From Dhillonvirus LM40P1: a stretch of 45,013 nt of DNA. Below, in pieces: positions 20,201 to 37,009 of the stretch. The stretch lies in sequence record OZ035811.1, one strand, 5' to 3'. The notes below the pieces were generated by a model that made no database searches, had not been told where the DNA came from, and worked only from the letters and a program-made list of their open reading frames with translations. The translations under genes and the position numbers were made by a program. Numbering within the stretch: position 1 is the first letter of the stretch; every line of letters starts with the position of its first letter.

Positions 20201-20697
20201 AGCAGAAAATGACGTCTACGTTTAACCACTCTGGTGGTAACGCAACCTACAGCCTGAAAGCTGGAGTGACGTACAACGGGACGTATTATGATGCCGGTAT
20301 GCAGCTTTCGGTAGTTGCCGAAGGGAACTCGGTTAAATCGCGCATCGCGTTCAAGGCGGACCAGTTCTACATCATGCACCCGTCGAACGGTACGCTATCC
20401 TCCGCGTTCATCGTTGACGGCGGGCAGGTGTACATCGACACGGCCCGAATCAAGAACGCGTCCATTAACTTTGCGCAGATCACGGACACGCTGCAATCCA
20501 ACAACTGGCAGCCTGGCAGCCAGGGGTGGCGAATCGCGAAGGATGGCGGCGCGGAGTTTAACAACGTGACAATCCGCGGCAACGTGTATGCGCAGACTGG
20601 TAACTTCGGTTTTTCAAGTGGGTCGGTACAAATCGACTGGTCGGGGGTAAACGTGCCGTTGCCTGGCGGAGGGCGGGTTAAAGTGGGGGTGTGGTAA
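17251..20697 (+). CDS. central tail fiber / host specificity protein J-like
   Basis: 1148 aa ORF after I-like gene with ATGA overlap; size and position of lambda J-type tip protein. Confidence 0.8.
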   Translation: MTIVYSVTGHKGGGGKQHTPQETPDSLHSLAKIRILLALGEGEFEGIPSAAELRKRVYLDGTPIMNEDNSENFPGARVEFRPGTQHQDVIHGFSAVESESSVNVKLEQGAPWVRQITDTSLDAVRIRIGIPALYTNEDNGDLVGGRIDYKIVVYTDNADPREFAFAAVGKTMSLYERDHRIELPSNVNTGWRVEVHRITADSTSAKVVNDIRVQSITEIIDARLRYPLTALLFVEFDAKAFQDIPRVSIKCKGRKVLIPTNYDPIAHTYSGDWDGTFKRAWTDNPAWHWYDICITERFGLGRRIKPQMLNRYALYQIAQRCDQMVSDGNGGQEIRFKNDMYIQSQTDAWTVLKDLAAIFAGMTWWGNQMLNIVSDQPVAAVSHTITNASVIDGRFDYASGSQKTRYSTFAVAYGNPANHYDDAIATGQRVELVRRHKINRLDITAIGCTRESEAQRRGHWALISNQLDQQVSFKVGMEGLFFIPGSVVAIADTNISGGFEIRGGRLLEDPGTRTVLNTDEEITFRPGDKFLVRTANGSVETRAISSVNGNKVTLSSALDADPIPFQPFCVDGDDIQVQKFRITDLEYDDATSTFSVRGIEYNDSKYDAVDNGARLDPGIFTQMPDGVLKGPESVTITPSQISSQGQLITNVDIVFPPVKNAVVYEIQWRRTSLQNMALQWGNDWVNLPRTPSNGAHIPNVFSGNYQARVRAIGMGEISSPWVESAITPIEGRLGGLNAPIITAAVSGLHQILWKWNHNNAATDISYTELEVRKPGTEEWHFLTNVPYPGAEYAQTSLEFGIYQQLRARVADKIGNLSDWSAPFEGQVSDKVDDYMKGLDDEFLTSEDGKHFQEQIDTFPQGIYESMLTDAQQLLNARAEYQGIYAEIKVAYTVAADAHQAVAELETLIGTRLDDAEAAIHTLQTAQSTHEQAFAQYQQTVSAKFGDQEAAIQSVQTATSDVASALATYKTQVAAQFGQQSAAIEQKMTSTFNHSGGNATYSLKAGVTYNGTYYDAGMQLSVVAEGNSVKSRIAFKADQFYIMHPSNGTLSSAFIVDGGQVYIDTARIKNASINFAQITDTLQSNNWQPGSQGWRIAKDGGAEFNNVTIRGNVYAQTGNFGFSSGSVQIDWSGVNVPLPGGGRVKVGVW

Positions 20698-20702
20698 AAC
20701 GC

Positions 20703-20726
20703 AAGGGGCCGTTTGGCCCCTTTCTT
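20703..20726. terminator. bidirectional rho-independent terminator
   Basis: AGGGGCC gttt GGCCCCT hairpin flanked by A-run and T-rich run between convergent genes. Confidence 0.55.
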
Positions 20727-21690
20727 AATACATATTAGGAAGGACAATCAGCGGTGTTGGTACGACAACATTGCGGTTAGGCATCTGGAATTGCTGCCGT
20801 GAATAGTTGCCAATGACGCGGTTTTTCGCTGCACCAACGACGCTACCCGCCATGCGTATCCCGTTCATGCGTACGTGGTTATAACCGCTATTGTTTTCAA
20901 TAAGCGCGCCCGTGTATGAAAGCTGAATAAGGCTGTTACCGATATTCTGCCACCCTGCGCTAAGGTCAACCGTCCCGTTAAACACAAACGGCTTATTGAC
21001 GGTGGAGAATGTAACCTGGCCTGCGTTGTTGGTCATCGTGATACCGGTTCCGGGGCTTGGCGGTGTGTTATTGAATATAACCAATTCCATGTCAACGGCA
21101 GCACCCACATCATCAATCCCGCCGTAAGCCGCATTGCGGACGATAATACTGCCTCCATCGAAGCCAACCGACACGTTAGGGTCATCCCAACGGGCGAACG
21201 GAACACCTCCGACCGGCAGCGGCATACTTCCGTTCACATGGACGCGCTGCGCGTAGCGACAGGTCATCAGCCGAGCGACGTTTGATATGGCGGTGAAGTC
21301 CGTCGAGTTAGCCACCAGAAGCCCAGCATTACGCGACCCCACCGGCAGCACTTCCATAATCGTTCCCGCCCAGGTTGGAAGCCCGCTATAAGCGCCCAGC
21401 GCGTCAGCACCGTGCAGCGTAATTCCGCCATCACCATTTCGAGATATTGACGTTACAAACATCGGATCGGGTATTACCAGTGTTTGGTCGAACACTTCCA
21501 CCACTTCAACGGGATTAGTTAGCACGACTATAAGCTGCGATCCAGGCGTTAGCGGAGTATTGACTGTTAGCGTCTTGTCAGATTGGCAGCGCTGATTAAA
21601 ATTGGTACAAAAAGACGGAGCACGAAGCCCCGCCGTAATTTCCATTCTTGGACGTCCATCGTTGTATTCGATAAGGATACCTGCACCCAT
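20725..21690 (-). CDS. hypothetical beta-rich protein (receptor-binding protein candidate)
   Basis: ATG at 21690 with GGGAG SD; 321 aa, Gly/Asn/Thr/Val-rich; co-transcribed downstream of a lipoprotein gene. Confidence 0.4.
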   Translation of the reverse strand: MGAGILIEYNDGRPRMEITAGLRAPSFCTNFNQRCQSDKTLTVNTPLTPGSQLIVVLTNPVEVVEVFDQTLVIPDPMFVTSISRNGDGGITLHGADALGAYSGLPTWAGTIMEVLPVGSRNAGLLVANSTDFTAISNVARLMTCRYAQRVHVNGSMPLPVGGVPFARWDDPNVSVGFDGGSIIVRNAAYGGIDDVGAAVDMELVIFNNTPPSPGTGITMTNNAGQVTFSTVNKPFVFNGTVDLSAGWQNIGNSLIQLSYTGALIENNSGYNHVRMNGIRMAGSVVGAAKNRVIGNYSRQQFQMPNRNVVVPTPLIVLPNMY

Positions 21691-21692
21691 AA

Positions 21693-21917
21693 TTACCACT
21701 CCCGTGATTTAACTGATACCGTACCAGAGAAGTTACCGTCTGAATCTGCCGCCAAACCGGTGAATCGCATGTCAATGTCTCCGGCAGCGACCTTTTGCCC
21801 GTCAACATAACGCAACATGCAGCTTCCCGCAACGTAGGTAACGCAATCGCCATTATGACGCTCAACAGCACAACCAGACAGCATAGCAACGACTAAAATA
21901 CTTAATAAAGTTTTCAT
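21693..21917 (-). CDS. small lipoprotein (superinfection-exclusion candidate)
   Basis: ATG at 21917 with GGAGAT SD; signal peptide MKTLLSILVVAMLSGC with lipobox; 74 aa. Confidence 0.55.
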   Translation of the reverse strand: MKTLLSILVVAMLSGCAVERHNGDCVTYVAGSCMLRYVDGQKVAAGDIDMRFTGLAADSDGNFSGTVSVKSREW

Positions 21918-21946
21918 GGTATCATCTCCTTTGTTTTGACAACTTA

Positions 21947-21975
21947 AATATAGTGCAACCAATACGTGATTGCAA
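21947..21975 (-). promoter_or_regulatory. sigma70-like promoter (TTGCAA-17-TATATT) with ATTGGTTGCA repeats
   Basis: Minus strand reads ATTGGTTGCAATCACGTATTGGTTGCACTATATT, about 30 bp upstream of the lipoprotein start. Confidence 0.55.
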
Positions 21976-21998
21976 CCAATTTATGAGGAGTTTTCGCT

Positions 21999-24020
21999 AT
22001 GGCAGCGGGTACACTTAACGTAACAAACAACAGCAAGGCCGTAACGGGGTCGGGCACGACGTTTACGTCATTGAAAGCGGGCGACTTTTTATCGCTGGTG
22101 GTGGGGCAAGTCCCGTACACCGTCGCGATTGAGTCAATCCAGAGCAACACGGCGCTTACGCTGGCGCTGCCGTTTGACGGCCCAACGTCTACCGGTCTGG
22201 CGTGGGACTCCGTATCCCGCGATACGATGTCGCTGGCGACTATGGGTGTGACCGTACAGGCGCAGAAAGCGCTACGCATGTTGATTGCTGACGAAAAAAA
22301 CTGGCGAGCAATCTTCGGCGACGCAGAGCAAATCAGCGTGACACTGCCAAACGGCGCGGTTATGCAGGGTATGTCGTGGGGCTATTTGTCCAGCCTTCTA
22401 AAAGACGTCGATCCGGTTGAGCTTCAGAATATTGCCAACCAGGCGGTTAACGCTAAAAACCAGGCTGTAACGGCGAAGAACGACGCCGTGTCTGCTAAGA
22501 ACGATGCGCAGACTGCGAAGACTGCCGCAGAAACAGCGCGCACACAGGCCCAGTCGGCTAAAACTGCAGCCGAGTCCGCCCGCGATGAAGCACAGTCAGC
22601 TAAGACCGCCGCCGAGACTGCACGCACCCAGGCGCAGACCGCGAAGACCGCCGCCGAGACGGCGCAGGGTGCTGCGGAAGACGCACGGGATGAGGCAAGG
22701 CAATACGCAGAGCAAGCAGGAGCGCCGTATAAGCAGGTATTACAGCCTCTGCCGGACGTATGGATTCCGTTTAACGATTCACTGGATATGCTTTCTGGTT
22801 TCGCGCCTGGATATAAAACGGTTACGGTCGCCGACGACGAGGTTACGATGCCTAGCGACAAGGTGGTGTCGTTCAAGCGCGCATCAACGGCAACATATAT
22901 TAACAAGTCCGGCGAGTTTAAAATCGCAGAGATTGACGAGCCGCGATTCGAGAAATACGGCCTGCTCATTGAAGGCCAACGCACTAACTATTTCTCCAAC
23001 TCCAACACGCCGGAATCATGGAATCCAAATCCTGGTCTGACGCGCAGCGAAACTAAGACTGACAGTCGCGGTTTTACTTACGCAACATTTACGCCTGGAA
23101 GTTATGTAGGACAGGTCGGTACGTACTCGATTATTGCGGGATCGTCGGCAAGTCCCATTGACGCAGTGCAAGACGACCATGTAACCATTTCGTTTAGGGC
23201 TAAGGGTGCTAAGCTGCGAATTGGTGCGCGATTTGACAAGGGAAGCCCACTAACCACGGTAGCGATCATGTACGTGGATATGGACGACCTTTCCATATCC
23301 ACATCGGGGGCTGACGCTGATAATATGGTGGTTAAAAACGTATCCCGCGATGGGGAATGGGTGCTGGTTGAAGCTATTTATAAGGTGACGGACGCCTCCG
23401 CCCAGGTTCGCGGGGTGGTCTTGATGGCTAACCAACTCGGCGGCGCTCTGTTTGACGCAACCAGCACCGTCGATGTCACTACTCCGCAGGTTGAGTTAGG
23501 GATCGGGGCGTCTTCATATATCATCTCCGGCACATCTCCAACCACACGCGCCAGCGATATGGTGACGGTACCGGCTAACCGCAACCTGTATAACCTGCCG
23601 TTTACGGTGCTTGTAGAAGCGCACAAGAACTGGTCTAAGGCGCCGAACGCAGCGCCGCGTGTATTCGACACCGTCGGTTATCAATCGGGTGCGGCTATTA
23701 TCCTGGGATTCGGGTCTGGCGCTATTGACGGGTATCCGTACTGCGACATCGGCGGTGCTAACAGACGTGTGAATGAAAACGCAGGGCTTAAGCATATGGT
23801 TATGGGTATGCGTGTGAAAGAAAACCAGGACACTTGCGCGGTGAGTAACGGCACTCTTTCGACCGAATCTAAAACCACATGGACCTACCTGCGAGGGTCT
23901 GCAACGCTGCGAATCGGCGGGCAAACCACGATCGGAGACAGACACCTGTTCGGGCACGTCCGTAACTTCCGTATCTGGCATAAAGCACTGACCGACTTAC
24001 AAATGGGGGAATTAGTGTGA
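21999..24020 (+). CDS. tail fiber protein
   Basis: GAGGAG SD; conserved fiber-type N-terminus MAAGTLNVTNNSKAVTGSGTTF; Ala-rich repeat shaft; beta-rich C-terminal domain. Confidence 0.7.
   Translation: MAAGTLNVTNNSKAVTGSGTTFTSLKAGDFLSLVVGQVPYTVAIESIQSNTALTLALPFDGPTSTGLAWDSVSRDTMSLATMGVTVQAQKALRMLIADEKNWRAIFGDAEQISVTLPNGAVMQGMSWGYLSSLLKDVDPVELQNIANQAVNAKNQAVTAKNDAVSAKNDAQTAKTAAETARTQAQSAKTAAESARDEAQSAKTAAETARTQAQTAKTAAETAQGAAEDARDEARQYAEQAGAPYKQVLQPLPDVWIPFNDSLDMLSGFAPGYKTVTVADDEVTMPSDKVVSFKRASTATYINKSGEFKIAEIDEPRFEKYGLLIEGQRTNYFSNSNTPESWNPNPGLTRSETKTDSRGFTYATFTPGSYVGQVGTYSIIAGSSASPIDAVQDDHVTISFRAKGAKLRIGARFDKGSPLTTVAIMYVDMDDLSISTSGADADNMVVKNVSRDGEWVLVEAIYKVTDASAQVRGVVLMANQLGGALFDATSTVDVTTPQVELGIGASSYIISGTSPTTRASDMVTVPANRNLYNLPFTVLVEAHKNWSKAPNAAPRVFDTVGYQSGAAIILGFGSGAIDGYPYCDIGGANRRVNENAGLKHMVMGMRVKENQDTCAVSNGTLSTESKTTWTYLRGSATLRIGGQTTIGDRHLFGHVRNFRIWHKALTDLQMGELV
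22447..22700 (+). repeat. imperfect tandem repeats encoding Ala-rich AKTAAETARTQAQS-type units
   Basis: Repeating units visible in both DNA and translation of the fiber gene. Confidence 0.5.
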
Positions 24021-24274
24021 AAGACTTAACGCTGAAGTTTGAAAGCAAGGCCGCTTTTGCGGCCTTCAAAGCGCAATTAAACTGGGATGAGAACGAGGCG
24101 TTGCAGGATGATATTCTGCTTGATGTCATCGGCAACGTGTATGAGGGTGATGAGGATAATCTCGTTGCCGTTGAGGGCTACTTCGTTAACGTGCGCATTC
24201 TTGACGACGACCACGGCATTAACTTTGAGCAGTATGCCGTTGCGTTAGACTCACCACTTCGTCAATGGGCTTAA
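24017..24274 (+). CDS. hypothetical protein (fiber-associated)
   Basis: 85 aa acidic ORF between the two fiber genes, ATGA overlap with upstream stop. Confidence 0.4.
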   Translation: MKDLTLKFESKAAFAAFKAQLNWDENEALQDDILLDVIGNVYEGDEDNLVAVEGYFVNVRILDDDHGINFEQYAVALDSPLRQWA

Positions 24275-24285
24275 GAGGGTAAATC

Positions 24286-25167
24286 ATGGTTACTAAAACA
24301 AACATCCCAGCGGATATTACGGCGCTGAAAAATTCTACTTCATCATTGTCGTCTGACAAGATGGATAAGTCAGCCAATTTGTCGGACCTGGCAGACAAAA
24401 CTGAGGCGCGAAGTCATCTTGGTTTAGGGTCAGCAGCCACGTTGGACGTAGGGGATAGCAGCGGAAACGCGATGAAGGTTGGTGATTTTGGATTGGGGCG
24501 ACCTAACGGCGCTAAGGTTTTCTATACTACCTCGCAAGACACGCTACTTACTGGACTGGACCAATACGGTTTATGTGTGTTCAGGAACGACCTGCAGATC
24601 GCTGCGCCGTGGGATATTTGGAACTATTCATCAAACCTGTTCTTCCGCGCCGGAGATACTTACAGTATGCTAAGCATACCGTTTGAGGCGGCTGGTAAGG
24701 TGAAGGTTTTCGGAGGTGCCGCGGGTTACGGGTGGAAAACCGGGCGAACACTGCTCGATAACACAACGACGACTATTGACACTAACGGATTTGTCAAGCA
24801 AGCATCGCCGATTGTTAAAGTATTTGGTGATGGTAAATTTGAGGTTAATGAAGAGTCGAAAGGGGCTAGTGTAGATCGCATATCCGTCGGCGTTTATCGT
24901 ATCTCTGGTGTTCTCGGTCTTAACTCAGATGCGGCCTGGGGTGGCGTAGGCGGTGGCTTCGAGATTCCGGTAGACATCAACAAGCAGCCGCGGGTGTGGG
25001 TTGACTTCGAGGTTGAGCCTGAAGGGTCTATCATTCTTAAAACGTACCACCGGACACACGACACGGCTCCGTCTTTTGCAAAAAACATAATTGACGGCGT
25101 TAATGACGGCGATCCGGTAGATATTCCATCAGACGCTTTTATCTCAGTTCGCGTTAACATGCCGTAA
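24286..25167 (+). CDS. tail fiber protein (second fiber)
   Basis: AAGAGGG SD; N-terminal segment ADKTEARSHLGLGSAA typical of phage fiber N-termini; Gly-rich beta-type remainder. Confidence 0.55.
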   Translation: MVTKTNIPADITALKNSTSSLSSDKMDKSANLSDLADKTEARSHLGLGSAATLDVGDSSGNAMKVGDFGLGRPNGAKVFYTTSQDTLLTGLDQYGLCVFRNDLQIAAPWDIWNYSSNLFFRAGDTYSMLSIPFEAAGKVKVFGGAAGYGWKTGRTLLDNTTTTIDTNGFVKQASPIVKVFGDGKFEVNEESKGASVDRISVGVYRISGVLGLNSDAAWGGVGGGFEIPVDINKQPRVWVDFEVEPEGSIILKTYHRTHDTAPSFAKNIIDGVNDGDPVDIPSDAFISVRVNMP

Positions 25168-25196: not shown

Positions 25197-25770
25197 ATTG
25201 TGCGGATTCCCAGTCTATCTTTCGGCGTATTGTAGGACTTTCGAAATACTCTTTGCCGTCTACTTCAACCAAAGGCCAGTCGTTCACAATGGCGTATGGA
25301 TCTGCGACCTCTTCGATTATGCCGGTGGCTTTATGCTGACCAAACTCTACCAGCACCAGAATCACCCCGGCAACGCGACGCTCCATATATTCGTATGCGC
25401 AGCGCGCTTCAACCAGACCGCGACGGATGCCGGTAGTGGCCTTCACTTCGTACGACCAGACGGCATCAATAACCTGGTCTTTGTAATCCGGCCCTACTTT
25501 CACTTTGCGCTTACCCAGCATTACCACATCGCCACGGTTCATGGTGTTGCCGCTAAATAATCCGGTGCGCTGGAGTAAGCCTTGCGGGATGCAACTGCGA
25601 CCGCCGGTTTGCCCTTCCAGATACATCCCTGCGAACATCTCGCCCAGTACACCAACGAGACGGCTTTGCTTGCACGCGTCGGAACGGTTACGCCAGTAGT
25701 CAAACTCAATGCTTGCAATCAACGATGCCAGATGAAATGCTTTGCCAGATAATTCATATTCACCGTACAT
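25195..25770 (-). CDS. hypothetical protein (possible nuclease)
   Basis: ATG at 25770 with AAGGAG SD; D...EVK-like segment (DAVWSYEVK) compatible with a PD-(D/E)XK fold but weak. Confidence 0.4.
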   Translation of the reverse strand: MYGEYELSGKAFHLASLIASIEFDYWRNRSDACKQSRLVGVLGEMFAGMYLEGQTGGRSCIPQGLLQRTGLFSGNTMNRGDVVMLGKRKVKVGPDYKDQVIDAVWSYEVKATTGIRRGLVEARCAYEYMERRVAGVILVLVEFGQHKATGIIEEVADPYAIVNDWPLVEVDGKEYFESPTIRRKIDWESAQ

Positions 25771-34601: not shown

Positions 34602-36024
34602 CGCCCAAATCCTCGTCGCTTGCTTCTTGCCATTCCGGGCGCGGGTCGTCAACTGGTGCCAGGACCGGTTTCGCCGGCGCACGCGTGATTTTATCTTGCA
34701 GTTTCGCCCACACTTTCGGTTTCTCATCCTTCAGCACCTTCTCGGCATCAGTAGGGCTGATTAATGATTCCTTGTACATCAGGTCGCGCTTGATCCGGGC
34801 CGTTGTGAATACAGCGATAACTTCGCTTTCATCCTTCCACTTACGCGCACCTTCACGACCAGCTACCAGCTTCAGGCCCAGCGCTTCGCCGTCACCGGCT
34901 AACACTGCTTTGAATACGGCAGCCTCGATCGCTTTGATGTGCTGGCGCATGGTTTCCAGGCCGTCGTAAGCCTTCTTCAGTTCTTCCGTGGTCATAGCAC
35001 CGGCTGGCGCTTCTTTCTTTCCACGCTTCGCACGTCGGGCAGCTTTCCGGGCTTCGAGGTCCATGTTCTGGTCGTGGTTTTTGCATTCTTCCTCGGCGGC
35101 AATGCTTACATCGTCGCCCAGGTCTTCGTCGGTTGCCGTTGGTGGCGTCATTGTGTCGATGGCGGCTTTAGCGCGGGCACTACATTGGTCCGCAAATCGA
35201 CACCACTGACACGCATCGGCGCTCGGACGGAAGTCTGCACGGGTGAGATTCTTCTTACCCTTAGCGAGGGCATCCAGGGCGGCTACTGCGCGTTTTGCCG
35301 CGTACTTGGCGAAGATTTCCAGTGCTTCCACTGAAATATCCCACTCCGATGCACCGCCGCAATACGGCTGGAAGATGACCAGGCGAACGGTGGTAATGTC
35401 GTACATCTTTTGCAGCTTGCGCAGCAGGCCGAGCGCATACAGCATAAGCTGTTTGTTCTCTTTCGCCTCGACCTTATGGCGTCCGGTCTTCAGGTCGCCC
35501 ACAATGAGCATGTACGTGCCGTCGGTCTTCTTCATGACCATAACCATATCGGCAGTACCGAAGGTCTTGATCGCTTCGCCGTCAATCTCGTAGCCTTTGT
35601 GCAGGACGCGAGTCAGATCCGCGCGCATCTCAAGCTGCACAAACTCGGCAACTTCAAGCAGCGGTCGCCAGTGGTCGATGTACGCGTCGCACTGTTTCAC
35701 CATGTCGTCAGTTACCAGGATGGCGTCCTTAGGTGCTTTCGCTGCTGCTTTAACTGGTCCTTTACCCTGATTTTCGACGTAGCACCCTTTATATGTCTTC
35801 GCCGTGATGTGGTCTTCGCCTGCAATGATGCGGTTTAGTACCACTTCAGATACGGTGTGCATACTCGTACCGTTGATCGCGGCTTGCCCGGATTCGTTCG
35901 GAATACCTTTCTCCACCACCAGGGCGGCGGGACACCCCATCCATTTTTTAGCGCCGGATGGGCCGAGTAATGAGTGTTCTGTGTTACTGCCGGATTGCGT
36001 CTTGCGCTTCGCTTTGATAGCCAT
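34594..36024 (-). CDS. PD-(D/E)XK exonuclease (RecB/Cas4-like) with C-terminal Cys cluster
   Basis: GTADMVMV...IVGDLKTG...EAKENKQLMLYALG nuclease core and CQWCRFADQC cluster. Confidence 0.6.
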   Translation of the reverse strand: MAIKAKRKTQSGSNTEHSLLGPSGAKKWMGCPAALVVEKGIPNESGQAAINGTSMHTVSEVVLNRIIAGEDHITAKTYKGCYVENQGKGPVKAAAKAPKDAILVTDDMVKQCDAYIDHWRPLLEVAEFVQLEMRADLTRVLHKGYEIDGEAIKTFGTADMVMVMKKTDGTYMLIVGDLKTGRHKVEAKENKQLMLYALGLLRKLQKMYDITTVRLVIFQPYCGGASEWDISVEALEIFAKYAAKRAVAALDALAKGKKNLTRADFRPSADACQWCRFADQCSARAKAAIDTMTPPTATDEDLGDDVSIAAEEECKNHDQNMDLEARKAARRAKRGKKEAPAGAMTTEELKKAYDGLETMRQHIKAIEAAVFKAVLAGDGEALGLKLVAGREGARKWKDESEVIAVFTTARIKRDLMYKESLISPTDAEKVLKDEKPKVWAKLQDKITRAPAKPVLAPVDDPRPEWQEASDEDLGDE

Positions 36025-36206
36025 TATTCGACCCTCGTAAACTGTACAATTACATATTTTCGAAAACTCTGAACGCCTGCCTTCTCAATGCGGCGCTTTA
36101 ATTCTTGTTGTGCGTCGTGCCAGCATTTGGCGGCGTCGATAATACCGACAATAAAGGATGTATGGTCGTTTGCTTCGTGGCATGTTGCCAGGACGAAAAA
36201 TTTCAT
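36024..36206 (-). CDS. hypothetical protein
   Basis: ATG at 36206 with GGGAGA SD; TAATG coupling on both sides. Confidence 0.4.
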   Translation of the reverse strand: MKFFVLATCHEANDHTSFIVGIIDAAKCWHDAQQELKRRIEKAGVQSFRKYVIVQFTRVE

Positions 36207-36457
36207 TATGGTGTCTCCCAACGGTCAATAGTTTTTGCTTCAGACCCCACTGCAAAGCGAACATATTCGTGATTCGAGTCCGCCCATAAATAAAAGTCTG
36301 GATTAGCGAAGGTCGTGCGTTTAATTTGTGCCGGTGTTTCCCGCTTCTTACTAATTACGGCAACGCGGGATTGAAAGGGGCCGGTGCGCTCGAATAGCCA
36401 GTAGTACGGGCGCTGGTCGCGCGAGTCCACCGCTTCAATTAATGTGAATCGTGCCAT
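36206..36457 (-). CDS. hypothetical protein
   Basis: ATG at 36457; 83 aa. Confidence 0.4.
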   Translation of the reverse strand: MARFTLIEAVDSRDQRPYYWLFERTGPFQSRVAVISKKRETPAQIKRTTFANPDFYLWADSNHEYVRFAVGSEAKTIDRWETP

Positions 36458-36472
36458 TGTCTCGTCTCTTTA

Positions 36473-36500
36473 AAAATAGGCCCGCAGAATAGCGGGCCGG
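36473..36500 (-). terminator. intra-operon rho-independent terminator
   Basis: On minus strand CGGCCCGC tattct GCGGGCC followed by TATTTTT. Confidence 0.45.
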
Positions 36501-36505
36501 GTATA

Positions 36506-37009
36506 TTAGTCTTCCAGTTCGAAATAGGTTTCGACAATTTCTTTCAGTTCGGTGTGGAAGTCTTCAACGTCGTCATCTTCCAGCTTAGCCACAGTCTTGA
36601 TTTCGAACGATTCCAGCAGGTCGTCAAATTCGTCGTTCGCGTCGTCATCGTCGCCGCCTGCAATGATTGCCGCGTATTGTGCAATTTCATCGCGCATTTC
36701 TTTCAGCGGATCGGCGTCTTTCTTAGCCTTCACTTTGCCCTTGCCTTTGGCTGGCTTTTCTTCCGGTTCGTCTTCGTCGTCGTCATCTTCTACGACTTCT
36801 TTTTTCGCCTTGCCCTTAGCCGTGGACTTCTTAGCAGGTTTCTTATCTTCCTGCTCGTCATCTTCGTCTTTGGCTTCTTCTTTCTTAGCCTTAGACGGTT
36901 TCTTATCTTCCTGCTTACCAACGGCAGCGCCCTGGGTTTCGTAATGTTTAGCGATGGTTTCCAGTGCTACTACGCCGCGAGTAATCAGATTCAGGATTTG
37001 CTCAAACAT
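36506..37009 (-). CDS. highly charged low-complexity early protein
   Basis: ATG at 37009 with GGAGAC SD; first gene of leftward early operon; K/E/D-rich with acidic C-terminal half. Confidence 0.5.
   Translation of the reverse strand: MFEQILNLITRGVVALETIAKHYETQGAAVGKQEDKKPSKAKKEEAKDEDDEQEDKKPAKKSTAKGKAKKEVVEDDDDEDEPEEKPAKGKGKVKAKKDADPLKEMRDEIAQYAAIIAGGDDDDANDEFDDLLESFEIKTVAKLEDDDVEDFHTELKEIVETYFELED

Follow-up and report, generated by a model that had tools for sequence, protein, structure and literature searches.

Phage LM40P1, a Dhillonvirus, carries two tightly packed ORFs on the minus strand (20725-21917) between its gpJ-like gene and its lateral tail fibre gene, a lipoprotein gene upstream and a gene for a putative receptor-binding protein (RBP) downstream. 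This raises the question of what such a pair does among tail genes and which host structure it addresses. In annotated relatives the two genes bear the labels 'hypothetical protein' or 'membrane protein' and 'putative lipoprotein'. The window that we analysed is the whole stretch of 45,013 nucleotides in record OZ035811.1, for which an earlier, sequence-only reading had proposed a receptor-binding or exclusion role of the pair. Gene structure, synteny, orthology and fold were established directly here, and binding of the RBP and of the lipoprotein Rtp45 to LptDE is taken from the literature on relatives. On this basis we put at about 90% the probability that the pair is the LptD-specific allele of the RBP locus following gpJ in small siphoviruses (Drexlerviridae, Dhillonvirus and Queuovirinae).

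The layout of the locus is summarized in Table 1, and the leftward pair does lie, as had been proposed, between the genes for the central and the side fibre. A nucleotide comparison of positions 20400-22300 showed 100% identity to Dhillonvirus LM40P1 and 99.7% to Escherichia phage Ioannina, while about 60 other Dhillonviruses match the region at 77-79%. The same synteny is found in Bas83, Ioannina, Oekolampad and Rtp. The product of the gene preceding the pair is annotated as tail protein or J-like tail tip protein, and that of the gene beyond it as tail fibre or lateral tail fibre protein, in Ioannina, Bas83 and Oekolampad. The pair begins directly downstream of the end of the gpJ homologue at 20697, as is characteristic of an LptD-type locus, and the gene order from lipoprotein to RBP, with both genes antisense to J, matches that of Oekolampad (bas18_0026/0025) and Rtp (rtp45/rtp44). 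Only 2 nt separate the two genes (TAA-TT-ATG), which fits a single operon with coupled translation, and an 81-bp spacer lies between the lipoprotein gene and the divergent lateral tail fibre gene. The latter belongs to a lateral fibre module (21999-25167) of three plus-strand ORFs of 673 aa (21999-24020), 85 aa (24017-24274) and 293 aa (24286-25167). Ioannina has the same three-ORF module, although its annotation begins the third gene further downstream, and Oekolampad and Bas83 carry a single fibre gene of different size at this position; such differences fit the known hypervariability of the lateral fibre locus.

Table 1. Features of the post-gpJ locus of LM40P1 and the basis of their assignment.
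Feature	Position	Strand	Basis
gpJ-like central tail fibre / tail tip protein, 1148 aa	17251..20697	+	ORF; relatives' annotation
GC-rich hairpin, likely bidirectional terminator	20703..20722		RNA fold
receptor-binding protein, 321 aa, Pfam DUF6453	20725..21690	-	orthologue of Oekolampad bas18_0025 (RBP-Oeko)
superinfection-exclusion-type lipoprotein, 74 aa, Pfam PF24052	21693..21917	-	orthologue of bas18_0026, homologue of Rtp45
sigma-70-like promoter candidate, lipoprotein-RBP operon	21947..21975	-	consensus scan
lateral tail fibre gene, 673 aa	21999..24020	+	ORF; divergent to lipoprotein gene

The larger ORF runs from ATG 21690 to the stop codon at 20725-20727. The program-made ORF list places its start at an upstream GTG (324 aa), but we prefer the ATG (321 aa) because it is preceded by a GGAG Shine-Dalgarno motif 8 nt upstream and because homologues as well as the PDB construct begin with MGAGILI. 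The description of its product as a Gly/Asn-rich, beta-type protein is borne out by its composition (Gly 10.9%, Val 10.9%, Asn 9.0%) and by an AlphaFold2 model with a soluble, nearly all-beta fold; signal peptide and hydrophobic segment are absent. Pfam places the protein, over its full length, in DUF6453 (E=3.8e-123), and among PDB sequences its one match was chain C of 9RPT/9RPW/9RQI, with residues 1-321 aligned to 1-321 (E=8.5e-178). These entries are cryo-EM structures of the RBP encoded by bas18_0025 of Oekolampad (Bas18), termed RBP-Oeko, bound to LptDE, the lipopolysaccharide translocon, of Shigella flexneri (Dunbar et al., PNAS 2025; PMC12685063). The LM40P1 protein and RBP-Oeko are identical at 263 of 321 positions (81.9%) in a gapless alignment; identity to the RBPs of Bas83-85 is 82-86%, and to Rtp44 33%. 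A 2026 preprint (10.64898/2026.04.02.716166) delimits the LptD-associated RBP family by more than 30% identity over approximately the full length to an RBP for which LptD has been shown experimentally, and the LM40P1 protein reaches 81.9% over 321/321 aa. Its model has the fold of the solved LptDE-bound RBP, and fold searches revealed no similarity to pb5. The earlier suggestion that the larger protein binds a receptor has thus found a solved orthologue and, with LptDE, a named partner.

What is known of this orthologue allows the receptor to be specified. Purified soluble RBP-Oeko inserts deep into the extracellular side of open-state LptDE, forming an interface of ~1,700 A^2, and LptD point mutants from resistant bacteria abolish both its binding and infection; its tail-proximal part is disordered, as in T5 pb5 (PMC12685063). 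Gln299 of RBP-Oeko, which contacts LptD Ser350 (PMC12685063), is conserved in LM40P1 and is the sole interface residue that was checked. In Drexlerviridae, Dhillonvirus, Nonagvirus and Seuratvirus, the region directly 3' of gpJ holds what Maffei et al. 2021 (PMC8594841) termed 'bona fide RBP loci'. The alleles of these loci matched the experimentally determined terminal receptor with no exceptions, and the same study identified LptD as a new receptor, including that of Oekolampad. According to the 2026 preprint (10.64898/2026.04.02.716166), the locus harbours four unrelated RBP families that correspond to FhuA, BtuB, LptD and YncD, and LptD is assigned to Bas83/84; Humolli et al. 2025 predicted LptD for Bas83-85. 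By extrapolation from the 82%-identical RBP-Oeko, we predict with confidence that LM40P1 uses LptD as its receptor. The published work on LM40P1 that our literature search found concerns defence systems and contains no receptor data. The result permits the same prediction for Dhillonviruses of the LM40P1 type and corrects the uninformative labels 'hypothetical protein' and 'membrane protein/moron'. LptD is essential and conserved, which makes phages using it attractive for therapy and 'phage steering', and it was with an LptD-type RBP that the LPS translocon was first caught in an open state.

The pair is therefore already known: it is explained by the published orthologous pair bas18_0025/0026 from the same genus, with 82% (RBP) and 80% (lipoprotein) identity and the same gene order, and the LM40P1 locus itself adds no new biology. 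LM40P1 differs from Oekolampad by 58 substitutions in the RBP and by its neighbouring lateral fibre module, with no sign of a different function, and the remaining doubt is confined to whether the 58 substitutions alter the behaviour of the RBP. They are concentrated at aa 237-247 and 283-287 (encoded at 20950-20982 and 20830-20844), where variation among 33 relatives (at least 73% identity) also concentrates; at aa 237-247 these relatives carry, for example, FNGTVDLSAGW, LNSVINIGTGG, YDRTINIGTSD or YDRTIYIGGGD. Members of the small LM40P1 sub-clade are 97-100% identical in their RBP and about 82-86% identical to the Oekolampad/Bas83 group. The patch variants are distributed as a mosaic relative to overall identity, with P0011 sharing the LM40P1 patch at only 83% overall identity, which suggests recombination at a specificity or escape hot-spot. 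That the two segments form a mosaically swapped surface patch acting as a specificity hot-spot, making this allele behave unlike that of Oekolampad, is nonetheless a tentative proposal that we consider rather unlikely. If true, the patch could adapt such phages to LptD loops that vary between strains or species, let them escape LptD resistance mutations, or help them evade exclusion by relatives.

The smaller gene extends from ATG 21917 to the stop codon at 21693-21695 and encodes 74 aa with the N-terminus MKTLLSILVVAMLSGC, a typical signal peptide of lipoproteins. The lipobox L-S-G-C noted earlier is present, with Cys16 as the predicted lipidation site and Ala at position +2. The identity of the +2 residue is an established predictor of lipoprotein sorting, and Ala at this position predicts sorting to the outer membrane. 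The protein matches Pfam PF24052 (Phage_lipoprotein, 'Phage lipoprotein family'; E=1.1e-20) and PHROG 4281 (E=5e-29). It is 80% identical to Oekolampad bas18_0026 (SE-Oeko) and 31% identical to Rtp45 of phage Rtp (E=2e-11), and phmmer aligns it with chain D of PDB 9RPS, which is Rtp45 (E=1.3e-6). Cys25 and Cys33 align with the Rtp45 disulfide Cys30-Cys38, and both cysteines are invariant in the alignment. The locus hence contains, next to the RBP gene, a lipobox lipoprotein homologous to Rtp45 and SE-Oeko that has kept the disulfide cysteines.

For Rtp45, the structure of the complex suggests how such a lipoprotein could act on the receptor. It binds periplasmic LptDE between LptE and LptM with a hairpin reaching up the lumen (PDB 9RPS), and displaces LptD extracellular loop 4 by up to 20 A, so that LptD adopts a conformation to which the RBP cannot bind (Dunbar et al., PNAS 2025; PMC12685063). 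Expression of SE-Oeko did not succeed in the same study. The exclusion role of the LM40P1 lipoprotein is modelled on this Rtp45-LptDE structure. After export and lipidation at Cys16, the 74-aa product would reach the inner leaflet of the outer membrane, where it may bind the periplasmic side of LptDE and push its hairpin up the lumen. The hairpin would displace extracellular loop 4, and LptD could consequently no longer accept the RBP. The expected outcome would be that superinfecting phages of the same receptor type are excluded and that progeny are spared wastage on the debris of lysed cells. The earlier idea that the lipoprotein masks the receptor is therefore retained as far as an action on the receptor is concerned, given the relationship to SE-Oeko and Rtp45, but the published mechanism is steric displacement of loop 4 and not masking of the surface. 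We infer an in vivo exclusion phenotype as well as the timing of expression.

Alternatively, the lipoprotein might mainly modulate LptDE to the benefit of the phage, for instance with regard to LPS export or envelope integrity, or protect progeny only at lysis. Rtp45 is bound within an essential machine, in contact with LptE and LptM, and our literature search found no report of an in vivo exclusion phenotype for PF24052 lipoproteins, Rtp45 included. However, the conformation that Rtp45 forces on LptD clashes with the RBP, and the lipoprotein accompanies the RBP, encoded next to it in siphophages and elsewhere in the genome in Kuravirus and Webervirus, as would be expected of a receptor-specific antagonist. 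The analogy to Llp and Cor, from established knowledge, points in the same direction, and we regard the modulation of LptDE as very improbable compared with an LptD-specific exclusion function.

The assignment to LptD would be overturned by the presence of a DUF6453 allele in Dhillonviruses that depend on another receptor. Some Dhillonviruses are FhuA-dependent (Lewis et al. 2023), and the replaced hypervariable patch of the LM40P1 RBP relative to that of Oekolampad might be taken to mean that the 18% divergence reflects a receptor switch, so that the pair would form a receptor-binding and exclusion module for FhuA, for example. The FhuA-dependent JLBYU37, however, carries an unrelated, T1-like allele at the same site, consisting of ~100-aa and ~225-aa genes co-directional with J and an antisense Cor-type gene, which corresponds to the gp32/gp31/cor layout of T1. 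The absence of the DUF6453 allele from this phage argues that LM40P1 carries the LptD allele. Moreover, the DUF6453 family (more than 30% identity, full coverage) is associated only with LptD in published work, with even the 33%-identical Rtp44/Bas01-type proteins going with LptD, and sequence and fold searches found no similarity of the pair to pb5, Llp or Cor, which leaves a different receptor slightly less probable still than a modulatory lipoprotein. Equally improbable is a reading of the 321-aa protein as a host-cell 'membrane protein / moron' that is not a virion component and forms a two-part exclusion or host-takeover system with the lipoprotein, as the label of PHROG 1265 and a transcript antisense to the tail operon and shared with a host-targeted lipoprotein might suggest, since the protein is a predicted soluble all-beta protein without membrane or export signals, its 82%-identical orthologue was purified in soluble form and binds LptDE from the extracellular side, allele type and receptor specificity go together among the phages, and the Kuravirus homologues sit in a structural tail module beside the tail-tip fibre gene. 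The label of PHROG 1265, which covers the RBP family ('membrane protein; moron, auxiliary metabolic gene and host takeover'), is contradicted by the structural work on this family.

JLBYU37 is also informative with regard to the determinant of FhuA specificity. Lewis et al. 2023 took 'the RBP' of FhuA-dependent Dhillonviruses to be the J-like protein and did not address the post-J locus. Owing to the locus rule, the T1-like gp21/gp20 and Cor-type allele right after J in JLBYU37 (OK272488.1) is the more likely determinant.

With LptD as the preferred receptor, the 321-aa protein would be the terminal RBP seated on the tip of the J-like central fibre, and its N-terminal ~30 residues are the probable docking element, judging from their conservation. 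They form the most conserved stretch of the DUF6453 family, with M1, G4, N10, D11, I18, G21 and L22 invariant. On the side of J, the C-terminal 120 aa are 84% identical to Oekolampad J, 45% identical to Rtp43 (LptD type) and 38% identical to T1 gp33 (FhuA type), and the ending ...PLPGGGRVKVG.W is common to Rtp43 and the LptD types and absent from T1. The J C-terminus thus co-varies with the allele type among the phages compared (Oekolampad, Rtp and T1). In Citrobacter phage HCF1 (MN545971.1: 29341-29442), only the first 34 DUF6453 codons remain, 76% identical to the LM40P1 N-terminus and abutting a longer J protein (~1238 aa). This fragment appears to be what is left of an RBP locus after its replacement by a J protein with an extended C-terminus, as known from TolC-type phages, and it would agree with the idea that the N-terminal ~30 aa form a separable module for docking to J.

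Among the systems to which the locus can be compared, the closest after Oekolampad is the LptD allele of Rtp (rtp44/rtp45) and of the Bas01 type, with the same families DUF6453 and PF24052 and with LptD assigned as its receptor. Rtp has the same gene order and orientation after its J homologue rtp43, and the disulfide cysteines of Rtp45 are conserved in LM40P1. Rtp belongs to a different family, the Drexlerviridae, however, and identity is only 33% for the RBP and 31% for the lipoprotein; its two genes overlap, whereas those of LM40P1 are spaced. The likeness to T5 pb5/Llp and T1/phi80 cor noted in the sequence-only reading holds for the functional logic but extends neither to the receptor, which is LptD and not FhuA, nor to sequence or fold. 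In T5, the central fibre carries at its tip the monomeric RBP pb5 (oad), which binds an outer-membrane beta-barrel, and Llp, a small periplasm-facing lipoprotein encoded by the neighbouring gene, engages this receptor from the inside so that the RBP no longer binds. The receptor there is FhuA and Llp acts by long-range allostery, in contrast to the steric loop displacement by Rtp45 in the LptD type (PMC12685063). The FhuA-type locus of T1, phi80 and N15, which also occurs in Dhillonviruses such as JLBYU37, occupies the same slot after gpJ and combines an RBP with an exclusion lipoprotein in the same way, but its proteins and layout are unrelated, the ~100-aa and ~225-aa genes being co-directional with J and Cor being antisense. 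Searches of Pfam, PHROGs, PDB sequences and folds detected no similarity of either LM40P1 protein to pb5, Llp or Cor. The sole Cor signal is a match of the lipoprotein to PHROG 1119 (E=0.015) that covers aa 1-30, the signal peptide only. We therefore rejected homology to T5 pb5/Llp, for want of similarity in sequence or fold, as well as membership in the Cor/FhuA-type locus, since the mature lipoprotein lacks homology to Cor and the T1-like layout is absent.

Two candidate transcription signals frame the operon. Between the convergent stop codons of the gpJ-like and RBP genes lies the hairpin AAGGGGCC-GTTT-GGCCCCTT, with a folding energy of -17.4 kcal/mol (z = -2.98 against shuffled sequences), which is likely a bidirectional terminator. 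A terminator scan made no call at this hairpin because its T-run is short; in some relatives a terminator is annotated at the equivalent position. Upstream of the pair, where an early-type promoter had been proposed, TTGCAA-17-TATATT agrees with the sigma-70 consensus at 9 of 12 positions and lies ~30 nt upstream of the lipoprotein ATG. The proposal of an early-type promoter was not substantiated, however: the two sigma-70-like matches found around the operon are not enriched over the 1.6 +/- 1.3 expected in shuffled sequence, and the -10 element TATATT is not conserved in Oekolampad and Bas83. The -35 element TTGCAA is conserved in both, but it overlaps the 5' end of the divergent fibre gene, which confounds its conservation. 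We thus list the motif only as a candidate promoter of the lipoprotein-RBP operon.

Both protein families also occur outside the small siphoviruses. In Kuravirus (phiEco32-like podoviruses of ~76-79 kb), DUF6453 and PF24052 are both present, at separate loci. Kuravirus vB_EcoP_WFI101126 encodes a 344-aa DUF6453 protein (NC_070991.1: 18871-19905; Pfam E=1.7e-25, 9rpt_C E=1.2e-9), the gene for which directly follows that of the tail-tip fibre, whose product is part of the SU10 virion structure 7Z4B. A 93-aa PF24052 lipoprotein of the same phage (65612-65893 of NC_070991.1; E=3.9e-36) is encoded among early small genes, is 38% identical to the LM40P1 lipoprotein and retains the cysteines. Homology and gene position suggest that LptD may be the terminal receptor of Kuravirus, with an early-expressed exclusion lipoprotein; our literature search found no paper linking Kuravirus to LptD. 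In Klebsiella Webervirus, as exemplified by phiW14 (OK655936.1), a DUF6453 gene (35580-36533, 33% identity) and a PF24052 gene (25368-25592, 44%) lie ~10 kb apart and hence co-occur without forming an operon.

A receptor that is engaged in its open state might also bear on the conditions under which LM40P1 infects. LM40_P1 reportedly infects better on low-density lawns (bioRxiv 10.1101/2024.12.20.629700). In the proposal of Dunbar et al. (PMC12685063), the LptDE state to which LptD-type RBPs bind is open and may be actively exporting, so that growing cells would be favoured. It is tempting to speculate that the preference of LM40_P1 for low-density lawns could reflect a dependence on actively exporting, open LptDE.
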